Below are positions 2,099 through 49,521 of a stretch of DNA of 64,000 nt, in pieces; within the stretch, counting starts at the first letter, position 1, and each line of letters begins with the position of its first letter. The notes under the pieces were generated by a model. It was not told the DNA's origin and searched no databases. It worked only from the letters and a program-made list of their open reading frames with translations. Source of the DNA: Enterobacter phage EC-F2; sequence record MN508624.2; one strand, 5' to 3'. A program made the translations under genes and the position numbers.

Positions 2099-2517
2099 TG
2101 GACGATGTAACGTTTGGTGTAATATTTCCTTTGCGTCTGGGTTCAGACAAAAGGATAGATCGGAGTTTTGTTAAATGTGGCGAATTCCGGCATTGTGTGT
2201 ATTTTATTGAAATCGACGGTCGGATAGTGTATGTTGGAAAATGTCGTGATTTGTGGAAGCGGTTAGACACATACCGCAATTCGAAATACTGGCGGGAAGC
2301 AAACCCCAGTAACATTTTGAAAACCGCACGTCTGGAAATGGCAATCAAAAAACGTAAGCGTGTAAATCTTATCGTGACAACACACGATGAAGAAACATAT
2401 CATGATTTTGAAATAAACATGATCCGAAAAATCAATCCTGAATGGAACAAACAGCACTATGACAAATCTAACCAAAAATCAGAAAACCTTATTCAACCAG
2501 TTGATGAAACTGTGTAA
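2098..2517 (+). CDS. denA: GIY-YIG endonuclease II (DenA-like)
   Basis: VYFIEIDGRIVYVGKC...YRN matches the GIY-YIG motif. 139 aa against T4 DenA 136 aa. Located between nrdB and gene 63, as in T4. Confidence 0.75.
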   Translation: MDDVTFGVIFPLRLGSDKRIDRSFVKCGEFRHCVYFIEIDGRIVYVGKCRDLWKRLDTYRNSKYWREANPSNILKTARLEMAIKKRKRVNLIVTTHDEETYHDFEINMIRKINPEWNKQHYDKSNQKSENLIQPVDETV

Positions 2518-3616
2518 CGAAAGCGAATGCTTCTACTTCATTGATCAAAAAACTGTGATGCAAACCAATGTTCGCATCTTTAACTATCGCATGGCGAGCT
2601 ATTCCGACTGGTTAAAACCTGGTGCGCTGGAATGTCGCGGCATCATGTTTGTAATGGATGGGGATACCCCCGTAAAACTCGCCAGTCGCCCTATGGAGAA
2701 GTTTTTCAACTATGCTGAGGTAAAGGCATGGGAAGCACTGAAAGCCTCTCCTGTGACGATTGGTGAAACCGTAGTGGATGTGATGATTAAGGAAGATGGT
2801 TCCCTGATCTCCACCTTCTGTGATTCCGGCTATCTGGGTGTTAAGTCTAAAGCATCCGTTCAATCTGAACAGGCTATGGACGCTATGAGCGTGATCCAGA
2901 CTAACCGCGCATTGTTCGATCGCCTGACCGAACTGGTTAACGATGGTTTCACAGTCAACATGGAATACGTCGCACCGACAAACCGTATTGTAATTGGCTA
3001 TCAGGAACCAGCAGTGGTGATCCTGAACATCCGTAATAACGACACGGGCGAATATGTCGATTATCAGGATATCTTCGCAGATGGTGTATTACGTCCGTTC
3101 CTGGTTGAGCGCGAGAAAATCGAAATCACCGATCTGGATGCGTTCATTACCGAAGCCTACACGAAAGAAGGTTTCGAGGGTTACGTGATCAAAACTGATA
3201 AAGGTTTTGTAAAAGCGAAAACCAACTGGTATGTAAACCTTCACCGCACGAAGGATAGCATCAACAATAACAAAGATCTGTTTTTAAATATTGTTGAAAA
3301 TACCGTCGATGACCTGAAACAAATGTTCCTCGATGATATGTACGCACTCAAGAAAATTGACGCATTCGAAACGTTATTCCTTGATAGTCTGAATCGTCTG
3401 ACTGCAAAAGCATTCCAGGCAATCGAAGACACGAAAGGCAAATCACGCAAAGACTACGCGATCGCCCTGAGCGCAGACTTAACCCCTGACGGTCGTATCA
3501 TCTTCGGGCCTATGATGCGTTATTTCGATGATACCGATAAGCAAAAGCTGGTCGATAACATCGTTGCATTAATGGCGAAGAACTACGAACAGTTTATACC
3601 GGAAGAATATAAATGA
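2459..3616 (+). CDS. rnlA: RNA ligase 1 (T4 gene 63 / RnlA)
   Basis: Strong similarity to T4 Rnl1 (LFNQLMKLC, YASYSDWLKPGALECRGIMF, ASRPMEKFFN, C-terminal FIPEEY). Confidence 0.9.
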   Translation: MTNLTKNQKTLFNQLMKLCNESECFYFIDQKTVMQTNVRIFNYRMASYSDWLKPGALECRGIMFVMDGDTPVKLASRPMEKFFNYAEVKAWEALKASPVTIGETVVDVMIKEDGSLISTFCDSGYLGVKSKASVQSEQAMDAMSVIQTNRALFDRLTELVNDGFTVNMEYVAPTNRIVIGYQEPAVVILNIRNNDTGEYVDYQDIFADGVLRPFLVEREKIEITDLDAFITEAYTKEGFEGYVIKTDKGFVKAKTNWYVNLHRTKDSINNNKDLFLNIVENTVDDLKQMFLDDMYALKKIDAFETLFLDSLNRLTAKAFQAIEDTKGKSRKDYAIALSADLTPDGRIIFGPMMRYFDDTDKQKLVDNIVALMAKNYEQFIPEEYK

Positions 3617-3939
3617 CATTACCAGCCTTTCCAAAGTTAACTTCTTTGGTGTGGCCTGTGCTTGTTGCCCTGTCTTTGGCAGGGCTTTTGTACATGACAA
3701 TCACGCTAAAGAGCGAAAACGATCAATTGGCTAAAGATATCAAAGAGTTACAGGCTGATATCAAAAAAGTCAAAGAGACAAACAACACCAATACGGTGAT
3801 CTATGTCGAACAAAAAGGTAAGGATCAGCAGTTGGTCAAGGATGCCGGACGTAAAGATCTGCTGTTCAAGAAACCAGGACTGATCGAAATCAAGATCAAC
3901 AAGTCCTTCGAAGAGTATATGGCGGAGTACGACAAATGA
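3613..3939 (+). CDS. i-spanin (Rz-like; T4 PseT.3 analog)
   Basis: N-terminal TM segment followed by a charged coiled-coil. Sits upstream of pnk with an overlapping start/stop. Confidence 0.65.
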   Translation: MTLPAFPKLTSLVWPVLVALSLAGLLYMTITLKSENDQLAKDIKELQADIKKVKETNNTNTVIYVEQKGKDQQLVKDAGRKDLLFKKPGLIEIKINKSFEEYMAEYDK

Positions 3940-4253
3940 AAATTGCAACGTTAGCCCTTGTTCTGGGCGTTCTGTTGGTCGGGTGTGCTGAGAAGCCCCC
4001 AGAAAAGATTTTGCCTACGCTCCCCGCTAAGGTGAATCCGGTGAATGTGAAATGGAAAGTGGTTGCAGAAGTCCGAGAGATTGACGGTAAAAAATACCTT
4101 GTCATGCCTTATGACGGAAACCCATACGTTGCCCTTTCATATCCCGATTCGTTAATCTTCCGTAGTTGGATGAATGACGTTAAGCGTCAGAAAGACCAGA
4201 CGGATAACATTCTGTGTACCGTGGGATACCCTGAGAAATGCAAGTCAAAATAA
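3936..4253 (+). CDS. o-spanin lipoprotein (Rz1-like; T4 PseT.2 analog)
   Basis: Signal peptide with LVGC lipobox. Partner of the upstream i-spanin. Confidence 0.65.
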   Translation: MKIATLALVLGVLLVGCAEKPPEKILPTLPAKVNPVNVKWKVVAEVREIDGKKYLVMPYDGNPYVALSYPDSLIFRSWMNDVKRQKDQTDNILCTVGYPEKCKSK

Positions 4254-4405
4254 TTGATACATTCTTTGATGACTTGACGGTCGGAAAGGTGTATGATGCT
4301 GTAGAATCCAAAAATGAACTATTGATTGATAGCGATTGGGGGATTGCAGTCAATCTGCATACCGAAGCCAATCAGGAACTAATTGAATATGAGATCTTGA
4401 AATGA
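4238..4405 (+). CDS. hypothetical 55-aa protein (not in ORF track, <60 aa)
   Basis: ATG at 4238 runs to TGA 4403-4405, which overlaps the pnk ATG (ATGA coupling). MQVKIIDTFFDD... Confidence 0.4.
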   Translation: MQVKIIDTFFDDLTVGKVYDAVESKNELLIDSDWGIAVNLHTEANQELIEYEILK

Positions 4406-5289
4406 ATCTGTTTATTACTGTAGGCGTACCAGGTAGCGGGAAAACTACATGGGCGAAAGAAAAAGCTCGTCAACTGGGGAACACGCTGACTGTTTCCCGT
4501 GACGATATCCGCAAAACCCTTTACTGTGCTGGCGGTGATCTCACTGGCTATCGCTTCACCGAAGAGAAAGAACTGTTTGTTTGCCGTGTGCAAGAAGATA
4601 CAGTTCGTAATGCCCTGGCGAGTGGAAAGAACGTTATCGTTCACAATACCCATTTACACCAAAAAGATCATGATGCGTGGCGAGCAATTGCGAAAGAGTT
4701 CGATGCTGATTTCCATATTGAATGGATTGATTCCGATATTGTAGAACTCCTGAAACGAAACCATAAACGCGGTGTGAATGCTCTGCCTGTTTCCCGTGTC
4801 TGGGCGATGTTCGAACAGTACCGTAAACTCCGTGGCTGGGTTCCGGCTATGAGCTATGCAGATCCGACGAAACCAAAATGCGTTATCTTCGACGTTGACG
4901 GGACTCTAACCAAAGTCGGACAACGTAGCCCGTATGATTTCACGAAAGTAATCAACGATCCGGCTAACCCTCCTGTGCAAGAACTGTTCAGGATGTATAA
5001 GGCCGCTGGCTATGCCTGTGTTGTCGTATCGGGGCGTGAGGGTACTGCGCAGTGCGCACATGATACCGCTGCAAGCCTGATCGGATATGGTGTTGACCTG
5101 AGCGATGGTATCTACATGCGAGAAGAAGGTGATCATCGTCACGATATTCACGTAAAAGAGCAAATACTTGTTGAAAAGATTCTCGATAAGTATTATCCTG
5201 TTCTTGCAGTGGACGACAGGGATACACCAGTCGGGATGTGGCGAATGAACGGTATCCCGTGTTTCCAGGTTGATTACGGCGACTTCTAA
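4402..5289 (+). CDS. pseT: polynucleotide 5'-kinase/3'-phosphatase (PseT/Pnk)
   Basis: Walker A GVPGSGKTTWA plus HAD motif VIFDVDGTL. Co-linear with T4 Pnk. Confidence 0.9.
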   Translation: MNLFITVGVPGSGKTTWAKEKARQLGNTLTVSRDDIRKTLYCAGGDLTGYRFTEEKELFVCRVQEDTVRNALASGKNVIVHNTHLHQKDHDAWRAIAKEFDADFHIEWIDSDIVELLKRNHKRGVNALPVSRVWAMFEQYRKLRGWVPAMSYADPTKPKCVIFDVDGTLTKVGQRSPYDFTKVINDPANPPVQELFRMYKAAGYACVVVSGREGTAQCAHDTAASLIGYGVDLSDGIYMREEGDHRHDIHVKEQILVEKILDKYYPVLAVDDRDTPVGMWRMNGIPCFQVDYGDF

Positions 5290-5616: not shown

Positions 5617-5867
5617 GTGACAAAATCAGAAAGATTCATCAGGCATGGCTCTGTACTGAACCAACGATGCTTCGTTATGGTTGTGTGTTTGGGTTGGTTG
5701 ATAATGATCCTCAACAGGACATTGCAACAAGTCCGGTTGTTGAATACGCGATTCCGGCGAACAAATCGTTTGTTGAAGTGGTGACACGTTCAGGTACTAC
5801 GTATCACATCGTCAACCCTGATAACGATTTCATCAAAGACATTCTGAAATATATGGATGACCGTTAA
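5613..5867 (+). CDS. hypothetical protein (84 aa; ATGA overlap with previous)
   Basis: ATG 5613 overlaps stop 5614-5616 of the upstream ORF. Confidence 0.45.
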   Translation: MSDKIRKIHQAWLCTEPTMLRYGCVFGLVDNDPQQDIATSPVVEYAIPANKSFVEVVTRSGTTYHIVNPDNDFIKDILKYMDDR

Positions 5868-6397
5868 TGAAATTCAAAGTAATGAATATGCTGAGAGCAA
5901 TCGATCGGAGTCAACGTTCTCAATGTATTTCGAATCGTGTAGGTGCTATTATCGCGATTGGTGGTCGTGCCGTCGCGTGGGGCGAAAATAATACGGTTGA
6001 CCTTGATTGTCGTTGCAACTCATGCAACAATCATATGGTGAATGATGACGGTAAACTGAAAGCGGTTGATCGTCCTGAACATTCAGCATGGTCAAACGAT
6101 AACGAAATTCATGCAGAAATGAAAGCGCTATTGAGTGCGCACACAAGAGGTGTTATACTCAAAGACGCAGCACTTTACACAACTGCATCGCCTTGCCCTA
6201 ACTGCGCGAAACATATCGAATGGTATGTTGCTAACGGGGCGATTACATCGGTGTATTATCTCGATAAATACGATCGTGGTAATGATGAATGGATTTCACG
6301 CTTGCAGAAATATGGCTGTGTCGTGGAACAAATTAAACGGGAAGAGTTAGAATCGTTTATCGACTTTTCCAAAGTAGTGTTTAACAACAATGAGTAA
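5867..6397 (+). CDS. cd: dCMP deaminase
   Basis: HAEMKAL and PCPNCAK zinc-binding motifs of cytidine/deoxycytidylate deaminases. T4 synteny pseT-cd-31. Confidence 0.8.
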   Translation: MKFKVMNMLRAIDRSQRSQCISNRVGAIIAIGGRAVAWGENNTVDLDCRCNSCNNHMVNDDGKLKAVDRPEHSAWSNDNEIHAEMKALLSAHTRGVILKDAALYTTASPCPNCAKHIEWYVANGAITSVYYLDKYDRGNDEWISRLQKYGCVVEQIKREELESFIDFSKVVFNNNE

Positions 6398-7165: not shown

Positions 7166-7310
7166 ATTCGGGTGCGTAGCGCAATGCCGTTAAATGGTTC
7201 GGAATATGCAACCTTATCGTATGCGATAGGCTCTGTTGGTATCCGGTAATAGGTTCCCCGGAATGCGGGGTGAAGTAAAGAAACTTCCAGCCCACAAATT
7301 TAAAAGAGAA
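7166..7310 (+). ncRNA. possible small stable RNA downstream of tRNAs (T4 rnaC/rnaD-like position)
   Basis: Non-coding 145-nt stretch with hairpins (e.g. ccccggaatgcgggg). Not a tRNA. Confidence 0.2.
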
Positions 7311-15744: not shown

Positions 15745-17495
15745 TAATGGCTAGCAATCCATATTTTAACGAAGAACAACGTCGCCGGATGCAAAATCCA
15801 CCAAAACCACAGGCGCAACCAACTGTTCGGAAGATCCAGGCAACGTTAGATAAAGATTCGATGCGCGAGTTAAAGGATATCAATGATAACACCCTTGAAA
15901 CCGCGCTGAATACTCTGGACATCAAAGACAGTGTGAAATCCTTTGAGGATCGTTTCAAAGAGAAATTCGCTGGCTTCCAAGAACAATACGAACAGGATCA
16001 GCAACCACTTGCTGAACAGTTGCCCGATTTTGTTGGTCCATCGCGTCCACCATCACTGACAGACAACAGCACGAACAGTGTTGATAACTCCGTCAGTGTA
16101 TCGAACCAACACAACCCTTTCAGCAAGATCGAAACATACACCGGAACGATTGCGGAAGCAATCACCAAGTTCCTCGAACTCGCTGAGAAGAAACCGGAAC
16201 CGCCACCTGAACCTGAACCAGTACCGGAAGAGGAACCGGAGGTCGATCGGGACAACAAGAAGATCCGTGATAAGGATAAAGACGAGAAGAAATTCAGTAA
16301 GAAAGTATTGGCCTTACTGGGTTCAATCAAGGATAATACATCCGGTCTTCTGGCTCGCTTTATCGGGTATTCTCTCGAAGCGATAGCGAAGTTTGCCAAG
16401 TGGACTTTGATTATCGGTAGTATCGTGTTTGCTATTGAAGTTTTAGGTAAAGTCATCGCTTCATGGTTTAATGATTTGCTTAATGATGGAGAAGCATCCA
16501 AAAAGTTGTTTGGATCATATTTCAACAATATAAAAGCGTTAGCGAAAAGTATAGATGACGGATTAGATAAATTAGGTGATAAAGATGCAACATTAGCAGA
16601 AAAATTAAAAGCTCTGTTAGTAGAACCGTTTAAGATTCTGGGCAATACCATTAAAACCGCAATCACGGAAGGTATCGGTAATCTAATCTATGCTCTGGGC
16701 GAATATACCGGATCAGAAACGATTACTAACGCCGGACGCGGAATGAAAGTATCAGCACTGCGCGACAAACAAAAATACGGTCTTGACATTGATCCCGATG
16801 ACCTGATTCTGCTGAAACAACAGGAGATCCAGGATCAGAATGATAAAGTGGTTGAGGCACGTTCTAAGGTTGTCGAACAGGTTAAGGCTACTCAAGGTAC
16901 ATTCTCATATGGTTTCGGGCAACAGACGGACGCACAGAAAGCGCTATCTAAGCAATTGGAACAGATGCGCGATCGTGTGGCTATTGAAGAAAAGATCACC
17001 GAAGAGAAGAAGAAAGAACTGAAAGCATTGCAGGAAAACCCCAAACTGTTACAGGCTGAGGTTGATAAAGAGAATGCCGCTAACCGTAAGCGCGTGAACG
17101 AAACCAAACAGACCGAAACCGAGCAAGCGAAAGCGAAACCTAAAGCGGATAGTGAATTTGATCAGGGCGATGAAATTCTGAACAAAGACAATCTGACGGG
17201 CAACGATAAAAAGGTAATGGAAAAACTCATAGAATCGCTTGAAGAGAAAAACAATTCGAACAAGCTGAATGAGGACGACAAAGACCGCTATCGTGATATG
17301 ATCTCCCGCTGGCAGGAAAAGATCACCGCAGTACCGGAAACGAGTGCAAGTATTGACAAGCAACCGGAAGCAGCGAAAGCCCCTGTTCAGCCTACAACGC
17401 CTAACAGTGTTCAGGTCAATAACAAAACAGTAAACAACACGGTTCAGCATTCAGTACAACGAACTGACCGTAAACCATTGATTGCATTAGCTTAA
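15741..17495 (+). CDS. 29: baseplate hub / tail-length determinant gp29-like (584 aa)
   Basis: Size close to T4 gp29 (590 aa). Coiled-coil and PE-rich linker. Precedes gp48. Confidence 0.65.
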   Translation: MIMASNPYFNEEQRRRMQNPPKPQAQPTVRKIQATLDKDSMRELKDINDNTLETALNTLDIKDSVKSFEDRFKEKFAGFQEQYEQDQQPLAEQLPDFVGPSRPPSLTDNSTNSVDNSVSVSNQHNPFSKIETYTGTIAEAITKFLELAEKKPEPPPEPEPVPEEEPEVDRDNKKIRDKDKDEKKFSKKVLALLGSIKDNTSGLLARFIGYSLEAIAKFAKWTLIIGSIVFAIEVLGKVIASWFNDLLNDGEASKKLFGSYFNNIKALAKSIDDGLDKLGDKDATLAEKLKALLVEPFKILGNTIKTAITEGIGNLIYALGEYTGSETITNAGRGMKVSALRDKQKYGLDIDPDDLILLKQQEIQDQNDKVVEARSKVVEQVKATQGTFSYGFGQQTDAQKALSKQLEQMRDRVAIEEKITEEKKKELKALQENPKLLQAEVDKENAANRKRVNETKQTETEQAKAKPKADSEFDQGDEILNKDNLTGNDKKVMEKLIESLEEKNNSNKLNEDDKDRYRDMISRWQEKITAVPETSASIDKQPEAAKAPVQPTTPNSVQVNNKTVNNTVQHSVQRTDRKPLIALA

Positions 17496-24661: not shown

Positions 24662-26908
24662 TTAGATTTTGACTTCTTTTTCTTCCAGGACGATTTCACA
24701 TTCGAATGATGTGGTTTCCCAGACTTTCCAGAAATCGGATGGAATATTATCTTCTTTCGGAAGAATATCTTTTGCAGCGATAGAAACTTTGGTTTCTTCG
24801 AAGTCCAGATCCGCGAACCATGCATGGGCTACTACAACACCGTACATTACGCGACTTAAACGGGCATTCAGTTTACGGACTTCCTGAATCGTTGCCTTTG
24901 TCTGCTTATCAAGATACTCGACTACCTGATCTTTGTCAAGCGCATCCAGTTCAGATTTCACCTGATCATAAGCCCACAGGATAATCAGGTCGCCGTTGTT
25001 CAGTTTCTTCTTACCTTCTTCACGCTTCGCGACGGTAGCCGCTACAGCAGGAAGGGAGGAAACACCCTTGATTTTCACGTTCAGTTCTTTCGACATGTAA
25101 ACATCAGTCGATTCTGTGCGCTCAACCTTCGGAGAGAACCCGTAATCACGAATACCCTGTTCAGACAGCCATTCACCCGCAGCCTCACCAAAGCGCTGTT
25201 TCAGCCCTTCTGCGTTGCGCAGTCCGATCGCGTTGTCACGGAAGAACTTCATAACCTTCTGACGGCCTTTCAGGATTTCCAGACGCACGTTATCAGTCAC
25301 GAACTCTTTACCGCTTAACCCGCGAGTCATGCCACGGTTAACCAGAGGCAGAGAGGTAAAGTCTACCAGAACAGACATACGATCATCACCGATTTTTTCG
25401 AGCGGCTTGATAGTCAGGCCAGAAGCACGAAGGTTTTTCAGTGTCGGAATATCGGTTTCCAGCGGCAGAACTTTAACGTTCACGATACCATCTTTAACGA
25501 TGGTGAAGTTACGCACCTGCTTAGTTTCGACTTTTTCCGGCAGACCGAATTCTTTCTGTTTGCTTTCTGGGATAGTCACATACCCTTCCAGATCCGTGTT
25601 GATGGAAATGTTCGGACGGGAACTGTTACCCACCAGATGTTTAACCGATACTTTGGTTGTGGTTTGGGTAAATTTCGGTGTCCAGACTTCATGCGCTACC
25701 ATTTGCGCCGCCAGTGCTTTACGTTCTTCTGGGGTTGCAGCGTTTGCGATCTGTTCGGTCAGTTGATCCAGTGTATCATCTTCTTTCTGTACCGTCTGAC
25801 GGCCTGTGCGGTTGTACGCCCAGTGCTCAGAAGACAGGTCGATCACTGTGTCAGTTTGTGCCAGCAGTTCGAGCGCATCAACCAGAGTGAACGCGTTTTC
25901 GTCTGGAACCATGTTGTAATCAATACCATCAACGAAACGCTGTGATGGATCTACAACAGCCTGTGCAATCAGGTCTTTCGCGTTGGAGTAGTCCTGTTTG
26001 GTAAAGCAGTTGTCATACGCCTTGATCAGACGGACATCACCCAGCTTTTGAAGCACTTTCCATGCCAGATCAGGGTTCATTGTGTGCAGTGCATGATAAA
26101 GCACGACATACAGAACTTGCTGTTCGCTGGCGATGTTCGGATCGAAACCGTCAACATCGTTGATCGCGTTTTCACCCAGCGCCCAGATGTTTTTGATGTG
26201 TTCTGGAACCAGCACAACACCGTTTGCAGCGTTCAGGACATACACGCGCCCTTCGTCCAGGTAGATCGCGTGGGTAGCATCAGCAACTTTGACTTCGATA
26301 CGTGCGGAAGTCTGCGCGGTGATGATTTCGTTAAATGCTGGTTCGTATGCGTCGAAACCTTCAACGAATTTGTGCAATGCGTTGGTTGCTTCTGCCATTT
26401 TTTCCAGCAGAGGACGGTTTACATAATAACCGTATTCCAGGAACGCGATACTGTTGAAAGTCAGTGGCAGAACCGCACACGCTTTCAGAATATCATCGGT
26501 ACGCCAGCAGTTATCATAACCATCGGTCAGGAAGATCAGGCTGTTCAGGTTGCCGTTTTCGGATTGCAGATCGGTAGCGATTTCCGCAGCCAGATTCAAC
26601 GGCTCAACAAAGCCAGTACAACCCGTAGGTTTCAGGTAACGGTCGATAGCCGCGCAGATGTTAGACAGGTCAGAGACATTGCTAACCTTCTCACCACGGA
26701 ACACCGTGCCGTAATCGCCTTTGCTGGAGAAGTACAGGATCGAAACGGTGTCATCCTGTTTAACCAGACTCGCCAGGTTTGCTTTCAGGTGTTTACGGAT
26801 CTTAGGCAGTTCGTTGTACATTGAACCGGATACGTCACACACGAAAACGTGGTTTGTCGGGGTTGGCTTCGATACAGCGTTTTTGAATTCGATATTTGTG
26901 ATTGACAT
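24662..26908 (-). CDS. von Willebrand factor A (vWA) domain protein, 748 aa
   Basis: N-terminal MIDAS motif VFVCDVSGSM...T...LTDG. Large uncharacterised C-terminal region. Confidence 0.65.
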   Translation of the reverse strand: MSITNIEFKNAVSKPTPTNHVFVCDVSGSMYNELPKIRKHLKANLASLVKQDDTVSILYFSSKGDYGTVFRGEKVSNVSDLSNICAAIDRYLKPTGCTGFVEPLNLAAEIATDLQSENGNLNSLIFLTDGYDNCWRTDDILKACAVLPLTFNSIAFLEYGYYVNRPLLEKMAEATNALHKFVEGFDAYEPAFNEIITAQTSARIEVKVADATHAIYLDEGRVYVLNAANGVVLVPEHIKNIWALGENAINDVDGFDPNIASEQQVLYVVLYHALHTMNPDLAWKVLQKLGDVRLIKAYDNCFTKQDYSNAKDLIAQAVVDPSQRFVDGIDYNMVPDENAFTLVDALELLAQTDTVIDLSSEHWAYNRTGRQTVQKEDDTLDQLTEQIANAATPEERKALAAQMVAHEVWTPKFTQTTTKVSVKHLVGNSSRPNISINTDLEGYVTIPESKQKEFGLPEKVETKQVRNFTIVKDGIVNVKVLPLETDIPTLKNLRASGLTIKPLEKIGDDRMSVLVDFTSLPLVNRGMTRGLSGKEFVTDNVRLEILKGRQKVMKFFRDNAIGLRNAEGLKQRFGEAAGEWLSEQGIRDYGFSPKVERTESTDVYMSKELNVKIKGVSSLPAVAATVAKREEGKKKLNNGDLIILWAYDQVKSELDALDKDQVVEYLDKQTKATIQEVRKLNARLSRVMYGVVVAHAWFADLDFEETKVSIAAKDILPKEDNIPSDFWKVWETTSFECEIVLEEKEVKI

Positions 26909-28497: not shown

Positions 28498-28518
28498 AAT
28501 AACTTCCTCACGAAAAAA

Positions 28519-28540
28519 GCCCCTTTCGGGGCTTGATTAA
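28519..28540 (-). terminator. hairpin agccccgaaaggggct + T6 (minus strand)
   Basis: Follows the stop of the 28541-28819 gene. Confidence 0.5.
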
Positions 28541-28860: not shown

Positions 28861-29076
28861 TTACACTTCGTTAAACCATGCAAGATATTTCTTCTCTTGT
28901 CTGTTCAAAACGTCATAACAAGAGGCGACACAAACGGTTTCCCACACAACTTCATCGTAAGCATTCACGAAGCGAATGATCAGAGTTTTGCCATTAGTCA
29001 TCAAAGCCGGAGTGAACCCAAGTTCTTTAACCGCTTTTACTTTCTTCTGGAATAACGCTTTAGTCATGTTAGCCAT
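28861..29076 (-). CDS. hypothetical protein (about 71 aa, start MANMTK)
   Basis: Start chosen after SD aaaggagg. Confidence 0.45.
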   Translation of the reverse strand: MANMTKALFQKKVKAVKELGFTPALMTNGKTLIIRFVNAYDEVVWETVCVASCYDVLNRQEKKYLAWFNEV

Positions 29077-29116
29077 TTTGTGCCTCCTTTGTTTCGGTAA
29101 AGCTAAGGTATCACTA

Positions 29117-30037
29117 TCAATCAGACAGTGCAAGCACTTTTTTAATTTGTTTTGCAATTGCTTCGATCACCGGAACCGAAACAGAGTTCCCTGCCTGTTT
29201 ATATGCTTGCTTCTTGCTTGTCGGGATCTGGAATGAATCTGGGAAGCCCTGCAAGCGGAAACATTCACGCGGGGTTAATCGTCGTGGGTTCTTCCCGTCC
29301 TGTAACACCAGACATTGAACACCGTCCTTGAAGTATTGGGCTGTTATCGTCCCAGTACACACAGAATCGCTTGTGACGGCCTGATAACCGAAACCCTTAC
29401 CGTTTGCCTTATTTCGTTCCTTACGCTCTCTAAAGCCTTTCCATGCGTTATCTGAGAGGGTGAATGAATCATCAGCATCTTCGAGGATGTCGCCTACGCG
29501 TGTAGGTGTACGCGGGGGAACAGGAAATGAAAAGAATACATCATCCAGGAAGCAGACAATAAACACGCGTTCCCGTCTTTGGGGTAGTCCGAAATCCTTT
29601 GTGTTCAGGCGTTGATAGAATACGTTATATCCTTCGGCCTCCAGAAGCCCGTAAATCGTTTTAAACGTCTTCCCCTTGTCATGGGTTAGCAGTTCAGGCA
29701 CGTTCTCAAAGAACAACACACGGGGCTTTTTAGCGCGTATAATGCGGAGGATTTCGAAGAACACCGTACCGCGTACATCATCAAAGCCCAGTTTCAATCC
29801 GGCTTTACTGAACGCCTGACACGGGAACCCCGCGAGCAGGATATCATGATCAGGTACTTTGTTTTCATCAATGGCGAATAGATCACCCTGTAGGTTATCA
29901 TCGCCCCAGTTTTCGATATATGTTTGCTGTGCGAACTTGTCGATTTCAGACGTTAAAAGGCATTCGACACCGCCGAACGCCTTATCAAATCCTAATCGAA
30001 CCCCGCCCACACCAGCGCAGAGGTCAATTATTTTCAT
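29117..30037 (-). CDS. DNA (cytosine-5)-methyltransferase, Dcm-like orphan MTase (306 aa)
   Basis: Motif I IDLCAGVGG, motif IV GFPCQAFS, motif VI ENV, and a QRRERVFIV region. Confidence 0.85.
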   Translation of the reverse strand: MKIIDLCAGVGGVRLGFDKAFGGVECLLTSEIDKFAQQTYIENWGDDNLQGDLFAIDENKVPDHDILLAGFPCQAFSKAGLKLGFDDVRGTVFFEILRIIRAKKPRVLFFENVPELLTHDKGKTFKTIYGLLEAEGYNVFYQRLNTKDFGLPQRRERVFIVCFLDDVFFSFPVPPRTPTRVGDILEDADDSFTLSDNAWKGFRERKERNKANGKGFGYQAVTSDSVCTGTITAQYFKDGVQCLVLQDGKNPRRLTPRECFRLQGFPDSFQIPTSKKQAYKQAGNSVSVPVIEAIAKQIKKVLALSD

Positions 30038-30303
30038 ACGTCAAAATCAATCTCGTCGATTTTGTATGAGTTTTCGTCAATGTCCGCCCATAGGGTTACA
30101 TTAACGTGTTTGCTATCTTCGTACAACTGGCGACCATCAATCCCGCCCGTGTAATTACTTTCGGTACGTTCAGTAACTTCCAGTCGGAGGCTATCGCGCA
30201 TGATCTGAACAACAGCCTGTTCCAGTGTAACTGCGTCTGGGTTTTTGGTATCGCCCAGTACAACATCTTTAACGTTCAAAATAATATCAGTCATTAGTGC
30301 CAC
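30034..30303 (-). CDS. hypothetical protein (89 aa)
   Basis: Coupled ORF. Confidence 0.45.
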   Translation of the reverse strand: MALMTDIILNVKDVVLGDTKNPDAVTLEQAVVQIMRDSLRLEVTERTESNYTGGIDGRQLYEDSKHVNVTLWADIDENSYKIDEIDFDV

Positions 30304-33189: not shown

Positions 33190-33247
33190 TTTCATTATTC
33201 ATGCGGTATGTGTATATAATACAAAAGCCCTCACGCGAACGCAAGGG
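33190..33247 (-). repeat. PeSL-like cassette (same hairpin as 22209-22242; degenerate leader)
   Basis: aaagccctcacgcgaacgcaagggctttttt is duplicated exactly. Confidence 0.55.
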
Positions 33248-33263
33248 CTTTTTTAATCTTTTA

Positions 33264-47860: not shown

Positions 47861-48153
47861 CAGTAAGTAATCTCCGCAAACTGCATTCTACGCTCAATCG
47901 CATGGATAGCGTTATCACGCTGTTCTTTGTTTTCATATCCAGCCCAGGTAATCGGGGTTGAACAGATCAGGTGAAAAGTGATTGCTGGGTGTCTCTTCCC
48001 TTCAACAACGATTGTTGCATCATCTTCGATCCAGGTTACGTGATCCAGATTCACCGGATAGTTTCTTACGGTAACAGATTCACCAACCAAAGGCGACACG
48101 TCCAGAATATCACGATCGCTGACATATGATTTAATACGAGATACGATTAACAT
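47860..48153 (-). CDS. hypothetical protein (97 aa), translationally coupled to the radical-SAM gene
   Basis: Stop/start overlap at 48153. Confidence 0.5.
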   Translation of the reverse strand: MLIVSRIKSYVSDRDILDVSPLVGESVTVRNYPVNLDHVTWIEDDATIVVEGKRHPAITFHLICSTPITWAGYENKEQRDNAIHAIERRMQFAEITY

Positions 48154-49304
48154 TATTTTAACTCCACTGCATATACATCGGTTTCAGGGGCTTTGTGTAC
48201 GCGCATATCTTTACCACATACCGCATAAGCCGGACAGTTACGGCAACCGTTATGATCCTTGTTGCCCGTCAGTTCTTTACGGAACTGTTTTGTTTTCGGG
48301 TGTTCCCAGATATCCTTCACAAAATCTTCGGCTTCCAGAACATCCAGACCTTCTTCCCAGCCACCTTCAACCCAGCGTTCGGTAAACGAGCAAGGGAAGA
48401 ACTGACCACGTTCGTTGATATAAGAGCTAAACATCGTCGCTTCACAGTCTTCGGCGTATTGCTTGTACTGTTCGAAGTTCGGGTGTCCCTCCATCGCTTC
48501 AACGAAAGCGGGGGCTGAACAGCTATCGAATCCAAATCCTACACCAGAATCGAGGCAATATTCAACAAGTTTTTTATATTGTTCGCGGGTAACGGTGTCC
48601 CAGTTCTTACCGCGTCCTTTTTGTTTCAGTCCCAGGAACACGATCGCGTTGACTTGTTTCAGGCGCGGATCATTCTTCACGGCATCAACCACGTTAAACG
48701 CATCATCATAGGTTTTCGAGCTAACCATGAAGTGAAGGTTGATTTGCTGTTGTCCGGCTTCTGTCAGGTTCGCTACTGAGTCGAAAGCGACATCAAAACC
48801 AGCGTGTTTATAAACCGATACCGCAACAGCCCCAGCAACCGCCGCTAAACGCGCTGCAACGTCTTTTGATACGTCAGCAATGGTAAGGTTCGGCACAATG
48901 CCTTTAGAACGCGCATACGCCATCATATCGAACATATCGGGGTTTGTTTGCCCCTGTGCATCAGCACCGAGTGCGCATTGAGTAAGCCAGGGCATTTTGT
49001 CGATGATTTTTTTGAAGTTGGCAAGATCCATGTTGAACCCGTTCGGGTTATTGGACTTGTAGCAGAACCCGCAGAGTTTACCCGCTGGACCGTTGCATTT
49101 GGTAGTGATCTCGATATCGAGAATTTCGGGGAATGGTGCGTATTCTGGATCGTGGGAATATGTTGCACCCCAGCGAGCGAATTCACCAGTATCAACGTTG
49201 AAATTATAGTTGTAGAACTTCGAGCGAGCGAAGCGCATATTGCCGTGTTGATAGATGAACAGGGACGGCGCTTTGATGCTGGTAACGATATCGACAGTTT
49301 TCAT
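48153..49304 (-). CDS. radical-SAM-like enzyme with atypical Cys spacing and a C-terminal Cys cluster (start set at MKTVDIV)
   Basis: TTKCNGPAGKLCGFCY (C-x8-C-x2-C), glycine-rich GADAQGQTNPD region. C-terminal CSF...NGCRNCPAYAVCG is twitch/SPASM-like. Confidence 0.5.
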   Translation of the reverse strand: MKTVDIVTSIKAPSLFIYQHGNMRFARSKFYNYNFNVDTGEFARWGATYSHDPEYAPFPEILDIEITTKCNGPAGKLCGFCYKSNNPNGFNMDLANFKKIIDKMPWLTQCALGADAQGQTNPDMFDMMAYARSKGIVPNLTIADVSKDVAARLAAVAGAVAVSVYKHAGFDVAFDSVANLTEAGQQQINLHFMVSSKTYDDAFNVVDAVKNDPRLKQVNAIVFLGLKQKGRGKNWDTVTREQYKKLVEYCLDSGVGFGFDSCSAPAFVEAMEGHPNFEQYKQYAEDCEATMFSSYINERGQFFPCSFTERWVEGGWEEGLDVLEAEDFVKDIWEHPKTKQFRKELTGNKDHNGCRNCPAYAVCGKDMRVHKAPETDVYAVELK

Positions 49305-49314
49305 AATATAATTC

Positions 49315-49521
49315 TCAAAATTTAACATGGGATTGGAAGACAGCGCGAGCAAGGCTTTCATTGTCGAACGGTATCGACTGGTGTTTCTCTTTGCTGTCAA
49401 TGTTAACGCGCCAGAACTCACTCGAACCGTTTTTGGTGGAGTAATGCATCAGCGTTACCGTTTTATTCTTTTCCAGGAAAGTACGTTTGTCAATCTCTGT
49501 TTTGATTTCGTGCTGCATCAT
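49315..49521 (-). CDS. hypothetical protein (68 aa)
   Basis: ORF. Confidence 0.45.
   Translation of the reverse strand: MMQHEIKTEIDKRTFLEKNKTVTLMHYSTKNGSSEFWRVNIDSKEKHQSIPFDNESLARAVFQSHVKF

Follow-up and report, generated by a model that had tools for sequence, protein, structure and literature searches.

A C5-Cytosine Methyltransferase Gene without a Partner Endonuclease

The 64,000-nucleotide stretch of Enterobacter phage EC-F2 (MN508624.2) analyzed here, hereafter called the window, contains on its minus strand a gene for a C5-cytosine DNA methyltransferase (MTase; Table 1). The open reading frame (ORF) is exactly the one given in a preliminary description of this DNA: it begins with ATG and encodes 306 amino acids. 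The protein is identical to the "DNA-cytosine methyltransferase" annotated in EC-F2. With E = 1.7e-92 and 310.7 bits (cut-off 22), it matches the Pfam profile PF00145 over the full length (positions 1–324 of 324); it also matches the NCBIfam profile TIGR00675 with 321 bits against a cut-off of 100.65.

Motifs I, IV, VI, VIII, IX, and X are found in the canonical order, and the variable target-recognition domain lies between motifs VIII and IX. The preliminary description called motifs I, IV, and VI clear. This is right for motifs IV and VI. Motif I keeps the glycines of the F-x-G-x-G consensus but has Cys in place of the usual Phe at residue 7 (positions 30017–30019). The protein starts 4 residues ahead of motif I and has, according to the alignment, no N-terminal helix-turn-helix (HTH) domain. 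Based on its primary sequence, this is a real and intact C5-cytosine DNA methyltransferase gene.

Pfam and PHROGs searches find no nuclease domain in the ORFs flanking the MTase gene, including any EcoRII-C or Ecl18kI-like gene. Among the larger ORFs of the window, the same searches find neither a nuclease nor a base-modification enzyme besides the MTase. A hidden restriction partner, or further DNA-modification genes nearby, can thus be ruled out for the flanking and larger ORFs. The gene is an orphan MTase, as had been proposed: no cognate endonuclease is adjacent, and a lineage of lytic phages has conserved the gene.

Table 1. Positions of the MTase gene, its motifs, and other features in the window.
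Feature	Position	Strand	Basis
C5-cytosine DNA methyltransferase gene, 306 amino acids, single-domain, type of M.NlaX and the M.SsoII MTase domain	29117–30037	−	PF00145 full length, TIGR00675
Motif I (S-adenosylmethionine (AdoMet) binding), DLCAGVGG, residues 5–12	30002–30025	−	Motif location
Motif IV, GFPCQAFS, residues 70–77, catalytic Cys73	29807–29830	−	Invariant in alignment
Motif VI, ENV, residues 111–113	29699–29707	−	Alignment and motif location
Motif VIII, QRRERVFIV, residues 153–161	29555–29581	−	Alignment and motif location
Target-recognition domain, residues 162–251 (90 residues between motifs VIII and IX)	29285–29554	−	Alignment
Motifs IX, RRLTPRE (residues 252–258), and X, QAGNSVSVPV (residues 281–290)	29168–29284	−	Alignment and motif location
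ORF upstream of the MTase gene, 89 amino acids, function not known	30034–30303	−	PHROGs match (phrog_7342)
Small ORF downstream of the MTase gene, about 71 amino acids from an internal ATG, not a nuclease	28861–29076	−	phrog_26802
Terminator-like hairpin, which would close the MTase transcription unit	28517–28534	−	Sequence
Second terminator-like hairpin, upstream of the MTase unit	33223–33252	−	Sequence
rnlA	2459–3616	+	tblastn, 45% identity, E = 2e-97
First spanin gene	3613–3939	+	ORF coordinates and tblastn
Second spanin gene	3936–4253	+	ORF coordinates and tblastn
pseT	4402–5289	+	tblastn with T4 protein
cd (deoxycytidine monophosphate (dCMP) deaminase)	5867–6397	+	tblastn with T4 Cd, 31% identity, E = 4e-19

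Distribution and Conservation

In nucleotide sequence, the window is 96–98% identical to Cronobacter, Enterobacter, and Klebsiella phages of Pseudotevenvirus, the RB43 group. By this sequence identity the phage is a Pseudotevenvirus, RB43-like or "pseudo-T-even". Orthologues of the MTase were found by tblastn in 206 phage records, about 174 of which are T4-like genomes of Pseudotevenvirus and Slopekvirus. The protein is 93.7% identical to that of RB43 (Pseudotevenvirus) and 85.5% identical to that of KP15 (Slopekvirus). Orthologues in RB43, Lw1, Miller, vB_CsaM_leE, leB and leN, EC-F2, KP15, KP27, and phiEap-3 represent the same gene at the same position; for vB_CsaM_leE (hereafter leE), RB43, and KP15 the position was read from the annotation of the records. 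There is no substantive difference from these orthologues. The phage lacks the homing endonuclease gene by which the MTase gene is followed in leE and some other relatives. In leE this gene lies just downstream and overlaps the end of the MTase gene (L001, 34111–34647), and it is absent at 28861–29157 of the window.

The ratio of nonsynonymous to synonymous divergence (dN/dS) was calculated pairwise among the orthologues of the window, leE, RB43, and KP15. It is 0.06–0.11, while the synonymous divergence (dS) between the two genera (comparison with KP15) exceeds 1. These values indicate sustained purifying selection on the MTase gene. The enzyme is probably active.

The phage proteins were also compared with bacterial homologues. 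Twenty-three sequences of the phage clade and 98 bacterial homologues were examined at positions where the bacterial sequences show at least 90% conservation. The Phe of motif I is found in all 98 bacterial homologues, and its replacement F7C is fixed in all 23 phage sequences. Outside the recognition domain, the other fixed differences are K114P (just after ENV), N154R in motif VIII, and F282A in motif X. Five more differences, H202F, R204E, S240V, E241Q, and I242C, are fixed in the recognition domain.

Two of these changes could be taken as signs of an inactive remnant, an explanation that is extremely improbable. The Phe of motif I in M.HhaI probably stacks on the adenine of AdoMet, and in the phage clade this Phe is changed to Cys, as the Phe of motif X is changed to Ala. 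Against this, the low dN/dS extends across Pseudotevenvirus and Slopekvirus, the gene is kept in the approximately 174 genomes mentioned above, and the catalytic Cys, ENV, and RxR are all intact.

Affinity of the Recognition Domain

The recognition domain resembles those of MTases targeting CCNGG. At 51% identity, M.Ecl18kI (CCNGG) is closer than E. coli Dcm (CCWGG), at 26%, or M.HhaI (GCGC), at 22%. The alignment with M.Ecl18kI requires only two short indels, a 5-residue insertion of M.Ecl18kI after motif VIII and 1 residue further on. The identity rises to 53–60% for bacterial homologues encoded beside Ecl18kI-type restriction endonucleases. The best plasmid matches, 54% identical over residues 2–302, are the MTases of pECL18, pKPN2, and 4.2-kb plasmids of Shigella (S. 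sonnei) and E. coli. The gene adjoining the pECL18 MTase gene encodes R.Ecl18kI (PDB 2fqz, E = 3e-203), which recognizes CCNGG (PMC2577355). One bacterial homologue (P0068, 59% identical) is fused to an HTH domain and is encoded beside both a restriction endonuclease 53% identical to Ecl18kI and a Vsr protein.

Over the whole MTase domain, the identity to M.NlaX, M.SsoII, M.Ecl18kI, and M.Kpn2kI is 54–55%. According to PMC3978073, the base methylated by M.SsoII is the second C of CCNGG, and the same specificity is shown by M.NlaX, a naturally occurring Δ(1–71) form without the regulatory N-terminus. The phage MTase is likewise a single-domain protein without the 71-residue regulatory N-terminus. 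Unlike the MTases of the SsoII and Ecl18kI systems, it is accompanied by neither a partner endonuclease, an HTH domain, nor Vsr. E. coli Vsr gives nothing significant by tblastn against the window and leE (best E = 0.27).

The protein had been described as Dcm-like. This holds at the superfamily level (TIGR00675), to which E. coli Dcm and M.EcoRII also belong, but not at the level of the Dcm subfamily. Its score against NF007772 is 198.9 bits, where the cut-off is 710. It lacks the N-terminal extension of about 90 residues and the recognition-domain insertions of Dcm, having instead a recognition domain like those of SsoII, Ecl18kI, and NlaX. The profile score, the architecture, and the recognition domain together rule out Dcm orthology. 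Sequence comparison thus indicates that the MTase is not a Dcm orthologue by lineage, though it is Dcm-like as a superfamily member and perhaps in function. It is solitary like Dcm, and plausibly methylates the same base at CCWGG.

The genomic context of some bacterial homologues was considered as evidence for specificity and is not decisive. On two metagenome contigs, homologues of 310 amino acids (59–60% identical) are encoded immediately downstream of GmrSD-family nuclease genes (L008, 3312–3986; L010, 1995–3986). The GmrSD family is type IV and modification-dependent, and its pairing with a C5 methylase is unusual. In a P2-like prophage of Morganella morganii (L007, 3523–3993), a truncated Ecl18kI-like gene of 156 amino acids (45% identity over 106 residues) lies just upstream of a 61%-identical MTase gene. 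From its sequence, this locus looks like a decaying CCNGG restriction-modification system that leaves an orphan methylase.

Absence of the Hydroxymethylcytosine Pathway

T4 proteins (NC_000866) were compared by tblastn with the window and with the complete genome of leE, a relative 96–97% identical to this phage. For the phage itself, 64 kb were examined; the whole-genome statements rest on the relatives leE, KP15, and RB43.

In T4, alc is located between rnlA and the spanin genes. The preliminary description noted that alc is missing from this place, and this is confirmed. The two spanins match T4 pseT.3 (E = 9e-6) and pseT.2 (E = 2e-6). Here rnlA overlaps the start of the first spanin gene by 4 bp, so there is no room for alc and the T4 alc slot (2459–4253) is empty. 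T4 Alc has no tblastn match in the window. As for the cd gene, which was said to be kept, it is indeed present; its presence is uninformative since T4 also has cd. In leE, an HNH gene lies between rnlA and the spanin genes, in the T4 alc slot (L001, 6393–6929), and this gene is absent at position 3613 of the window.

The search for gene 42 and for glucosyltransferases, suggested earlier as a check, was run on the leE genome and found none. No tblastn match to alpha-gt, beta-gt, Alc, DenB, or Arn is present in the complete leE genome, and gp42 matches only thymidylate synthase (td; 23% identity, E = 4e-6). In leE, uvsX is followed directly by the DNA polymerase gene, where T4 carries beta-gt and gene 42. 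Homologues of gp56 (46% identity), Dam (54%), Cd, DenA, RnlA, PseT, and both spanins are present in leE. These results agree with earlier reports. Petrov 2010 (PMC2993671, Table 4) lists gp56 as present in the RB43 and RB49 types, which lack gene 42, alc, and denB. According to Nikulin & Zimin 2021 (PMC8056088), no known gene for non-canonical bases occurs in the RB43 and RB49 groups, which keep DenA as well as gp56 and carry genes for C5 or cytosine methyltransferases. The comparison supports ordinary cytosine, and not hydroxymethylcytosine (hmC), as the base predicted for the phage DNA.

The retained gp56 and DenA homologues correspond to leE gp027 (L002, 14771–15304) and positions 2098–2517 of the window. 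Outside the region corresponding to the window, leE gp031 (L002, 17061–17792) is a third gene annotated as "DNA methyltransferase", encoding 243 amino acids. Its profile matches are weak and generic (MTS, E = 3.5e-5; N6_Mtase, E = 1.5e-3), and it has no match to an NCBIfam DNA methyltransferase profile.

Avoidance and Retention of Restriction Sites

The numbers of restriction sites were compared with expectations from maximal-order Markov models in the leE genome (181.6 kb), with 92 kb of T4, a 50-kb sample of E. coli, and 50 kb of KP15 for comparison (Table 2). Of 508 5-mers, none is depleted more strongly in leE than CCSGG and GGWCC. The ratios of observed to expected numbers (O/E) in the window are 0.11 for CCSGG (at 7257, 10177, 19664, 42749, and 57681) and 0.10 for GGWCC (at 16035, 17957, and 49087). 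CCWGG (0.70–0.76) and GGSCC (0.84–0.87) are not depleted across the window and leE. The pattern is alike in leE, the window, and KP15, in which the O/E of CCSGG is 0.23. TCCGGA is absent from leE against a Markov expectation of 77. GAATTC (73 sites) and GATATC (126 sites) are conspicuously not avoided in leE.

Table 2. Restriction sites in leE and in the sequences used for comparison.
Site	Observed in leE	Expected in leE	O/E in leE	Comparison
CCWGG	342	453	0.76	E. coli sample 0.75
GATC			0.94	
CCSGG	17	133	0.13	T4 1.30; E. coli 1.00
GGWCC	5	94	0.05	
Six-bp palindromes that never occur	27 of 64	Each 23–53 times, from base composition		T4 (92 kb) 4 of 64

Such extreme avoidance implies that type II restriction acts on the lineage, which is what would be expected if its cytosine is unmodified. 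It is unlike the situation in T4, which is protected by hmC, and supports the earlier suggestion of a cytosine-DNA phage. KP27 is reported to show an unexplained broad resistance to restriction digestion (PMC5219037). Taken by itself, this resistance would fit cytosines that are hypermodified in some other way, which would make the MTase irrelevant. Such hypermodification belongs with the inactive remnant considered above and shares its extreme improbability: neither gp42, a glucosyltransferase, nor another modification gene is found in leE or the larger ORFs of the window, and site avoidance on this scale speaks for DNA that type II enzymes can attack.

Retention is seen for GATC, the site of the phage Dam, and for CCWGG, plausibly the site of this MTase. 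CCSGG is purged in both genera that carry the MTase, across saturating synonymous divergence. This indicates that the MTase does not relieve the selection on CCSGG. Judged from these counts, either the MTase would be specific for CCWGG only, or methylation of CCSGG would be of no help or even harmful.

The deamination products expected from the decay of 5-methylcytosine (5mC), CTWGG/CCWAG and CTSGG/CCSAG, were examined as another possible signature. CTTGG/CCAAG and CTCGG/CCGAG are depleted, CTGGG/CCCAG is near expectation, and CTAGG/CCTAG is too rare to judge; none is clearly enriched. This signature is uninformative, being confounded by the avoidance of CTAG, StyI-type, and AvaI-type sites.

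Target Sequence

How much of the ancestral specificity is kept can be considered from the recognition domain and the site counts together. The MTase could retain the full ancestral specificity and methylate every CCNGG, with CCSGG purged for some other reason. This has a substantial, though less than even, chance of being correct. The resemblance of the recognition domain to M.Ecl18kI, with only two short indels, and the higher identity to homologues encoded beside Ecl18kI-type endonucleases argue for it. So do the CCNGG specificity of M.NlaX, which has the same architecture, and the similarity to M.NlaX and M.ScrFIA noted in the KP15 record. The depletion of CCSGG argues against it. Protection of all CCNGG sites should make the purging of CCSGG unnecessary, yet the depletion is upheld in leE and KP15 at dS above 1 in lineages carrying the MTase, and this is most simply explained if CCSGG is unprotected. 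The phage clade has also changed several residues of the recognition domain that do not vary among CCNGG homologues. Under full CCNGG methylation, it is a possibility that C(5mC)GGG creates a type IV target of the McrA kind, or that CCSGG enzymes of the BcnI/NciI kind are not blocked. McrA-type nucleases target Y-5mC-G-R, and methylated CCSGG could thus be a liability.

A specificity unrelated to CCNGG or CCWGG, for example GCGC, is improbable. M.HhaI is the best match among solved structures (E = 4e-63) and a single-domain enzyme of similar size, the orthologue carries the label hhaIM in one GenBank record, the genome does not avoid GCGC (O/E 0.95–0.99), and the substitutions in the phage recognition domain leave room for a shift. 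However, the likeness to M.HhaI is in the catalytic core. The recognition domain is far closer to M.Ecl18kI, its loop structure differs from that of M.HhaI, and the same specificity is unlikely; M.HhaI was for this reason dropped as a guide to specificity. Nor is the retention of GCGC informative, as most 4-bp palindromes are likewise not avoided. The remaining weight falls on methylation of CCWGG only. The recognition domain between motifs VIII and IX, to which the preliminary description pointed for the specificity, therefore has a CCNGG-type affinity, but does not fix the exact target.

The restriction to CCWGG could have a particular origin. It can be speculated, as a tentative and on balance unlikely scenario, that a CCNGG MTase was domesticated, that its recognition domain was remodelled by H202F, R204E, S240V, E241Q, and I242C, and that it now recognizes CCWGG only. 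It would then mimic Dcm from a different scaffold, with CCSGG being purged instead. If this is true, comparison of the phage and plasmid enzymes would reveal how the central base is read, in CCNGG versus CCWGG.

Possible Origin and Role

The MTase of this RB43-like cytosine-DNA phage is, with high probability, a solitary AdoMet-dependent C5 enzyme of SsoII/NlaX ancestry that serves in anti-restriction. It would have descended from the MTase of an SsoII/Ecl18kI-type restriction-modification system, in which the second C of CCNGG is methylated. In the process, it would have shed the partner endonuclease and the regulatory HTH domain of the N-terminus, as in M.NlaX. Expressed from a minus-strand cluster of small genes, the enzyme would methylate phage DNA after replication, most likely at the inner cytosine of CCWGG and possibly at all CCNGG sites. 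This would block endonucleases of the EcoRII type (CCWGG) and of the SsoII/Ecl18kI/Kpn2kI type (CCNGG), types that are common on small plasmids of the host genera. In this view, anti-restriction would be a mixed strategy in which the MTase is joined by a T4-type Dam (GATC) and by the near-total removal of other restriction sites. T4 Dam, an orphan N6-adenine MTase, is a similar case, likewise a phage-borne copy of a solitary methylase of the host whose sites are too frequent to eliminate. The two differ in chemistry (N6-adenine versus C5-cytosine), protein family, and target.

Published digests bear on the protective role. The virion DNA of KP15 and KP27, with 279 and 276 EcoRII sites, respectively, was uncut, and the authors credit the phage "Dcm" (Kesik-Szeloch 2013, PMC3620542). 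Genes for Dcm and Dam are tabulated in all members of "Kp15virus" (Maciejewska 2016, PMC5219037).

Several facts weigh against an anti-restriction MTase in a cytosine-DNA phage, or against parts of this picture. In the same paper, a siphovirus without any cytosine MTase gene is protected by the Dcm of its host (PMC3620542). Because host Dcm alone is sufficient there, the EcoRII resistance of KP15 and KP27 is confounded, and its credit to the phage "Dcm" is not proven. A bisulfite or nanopore methylome for this phage group was not found in the literature. A gp56 homologue (dCTPase/dUTPase, 46% identical to T4 gp56) and denA are kept, an odd feature in a phage with cytosine DNA. Positions that do not vary among the bacterial homologues have changed in the phage clade, and these substitutions may have altered the specificity or the handling of the cofactor. 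Finally, homology of the recognition domain predicts CCNGG, yet CCSGG is strongly purged in both genera.

Retention of gp56 and denA could also point to a role of methylation in the biology of the phage itself. It might be a self-mark against functions of the DenA/gp56 type (Nikulin & Zimin), or might control transcription or packaging. Their homologues coexist with the MTase in the group, and such a role has been suggested (PMC8056088). It is quite improbable here: about 340 sites in 180 kb cannot shield the DNA from a nuclease of low specificity or affect an enzyme of the nucleotide pool, and the pattern of kept and purged sites matches known host restriction enzymes. Anti-restriction is the preferred role of the MTase.

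The interpretation given in the preliminary description is supported as a whole, but it is not new. The gene, its meaning, and the reading of ordinary cytosine DNA are already annotated and published (PMC2993671, PMC3620542, PMC5219037, PMC8056088). PMC3620542 and PMC5219037 treat the orthologous gene as a phage "Dcm", and PMC8056088 treats it as a C5 methylase of the RB43 group. Its annotation can be found in well over a hundred phage records of GenBank, the absence of hmC genes and alc in the RB43 group has been tabulated since 2010, and papers of 2013 and 2016 discussed the pair "Dam + Dcm" together with restriction digests. The gene therefore has little weight as a discovery. The modest new points are the recognition domain of the CCNGG (SsoII/NlaX) type, not of Dcm, the retention of CCWGG while CCSGG is purged, and the absence of 27 of the 64 palindromes. 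These phages, whose hosts are Enterobacter, Cronobacter, Klebsiella, and E. coli, are candidates for phage therapy, and their host range would partly be set by which restriction systems are neutralized by the MTase and which are dodged by site avoidance.

Neighboring Genes

The MTase gene lies in a run of small minus-strand genes between the two terminator-like hairpins (33252–33223 and 28534–28517). The TGA stop codon of the upstream 89-amino-acid ORF overlaps the ATG of the MTase gene in the sequence ATGA, which indicates that the two are translationally coupled. Downstream, the match to phrog_26802 corresponds to residues 28–98 of a 98-amino-acid ORF. A Pfam search of this small ORF (28861–29076) gives no match.

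The ORFs flanking the MTase gene encode phage proteins of unknown function with 70–185 amino acids, an RlaP-type nucleotidyltransferase, and a ProQ-C-like protein. Besides the latter two, the matches of the flanking and larger ORFs of the window are to nicotinamide mononucleotide (NMN) adenylyltransferase/Nudix, von Willebrand factor A (VWA), PhoH, SPFH, SLT, and SPASM. The SPASM iron–sulfur domain is found in a protein of 422 amino acids (48153–49421, minus strand), whose annotation in leE is putative radical SAM protein. A protein of 748 amino acids with an N-terminal VWA domain (24662–26908, minus strand) is encoded in the same minus-strand block as the MTase. It is kept in KP15, where a metal-ion-dependent adhesion site (MIDAS) is annotated.

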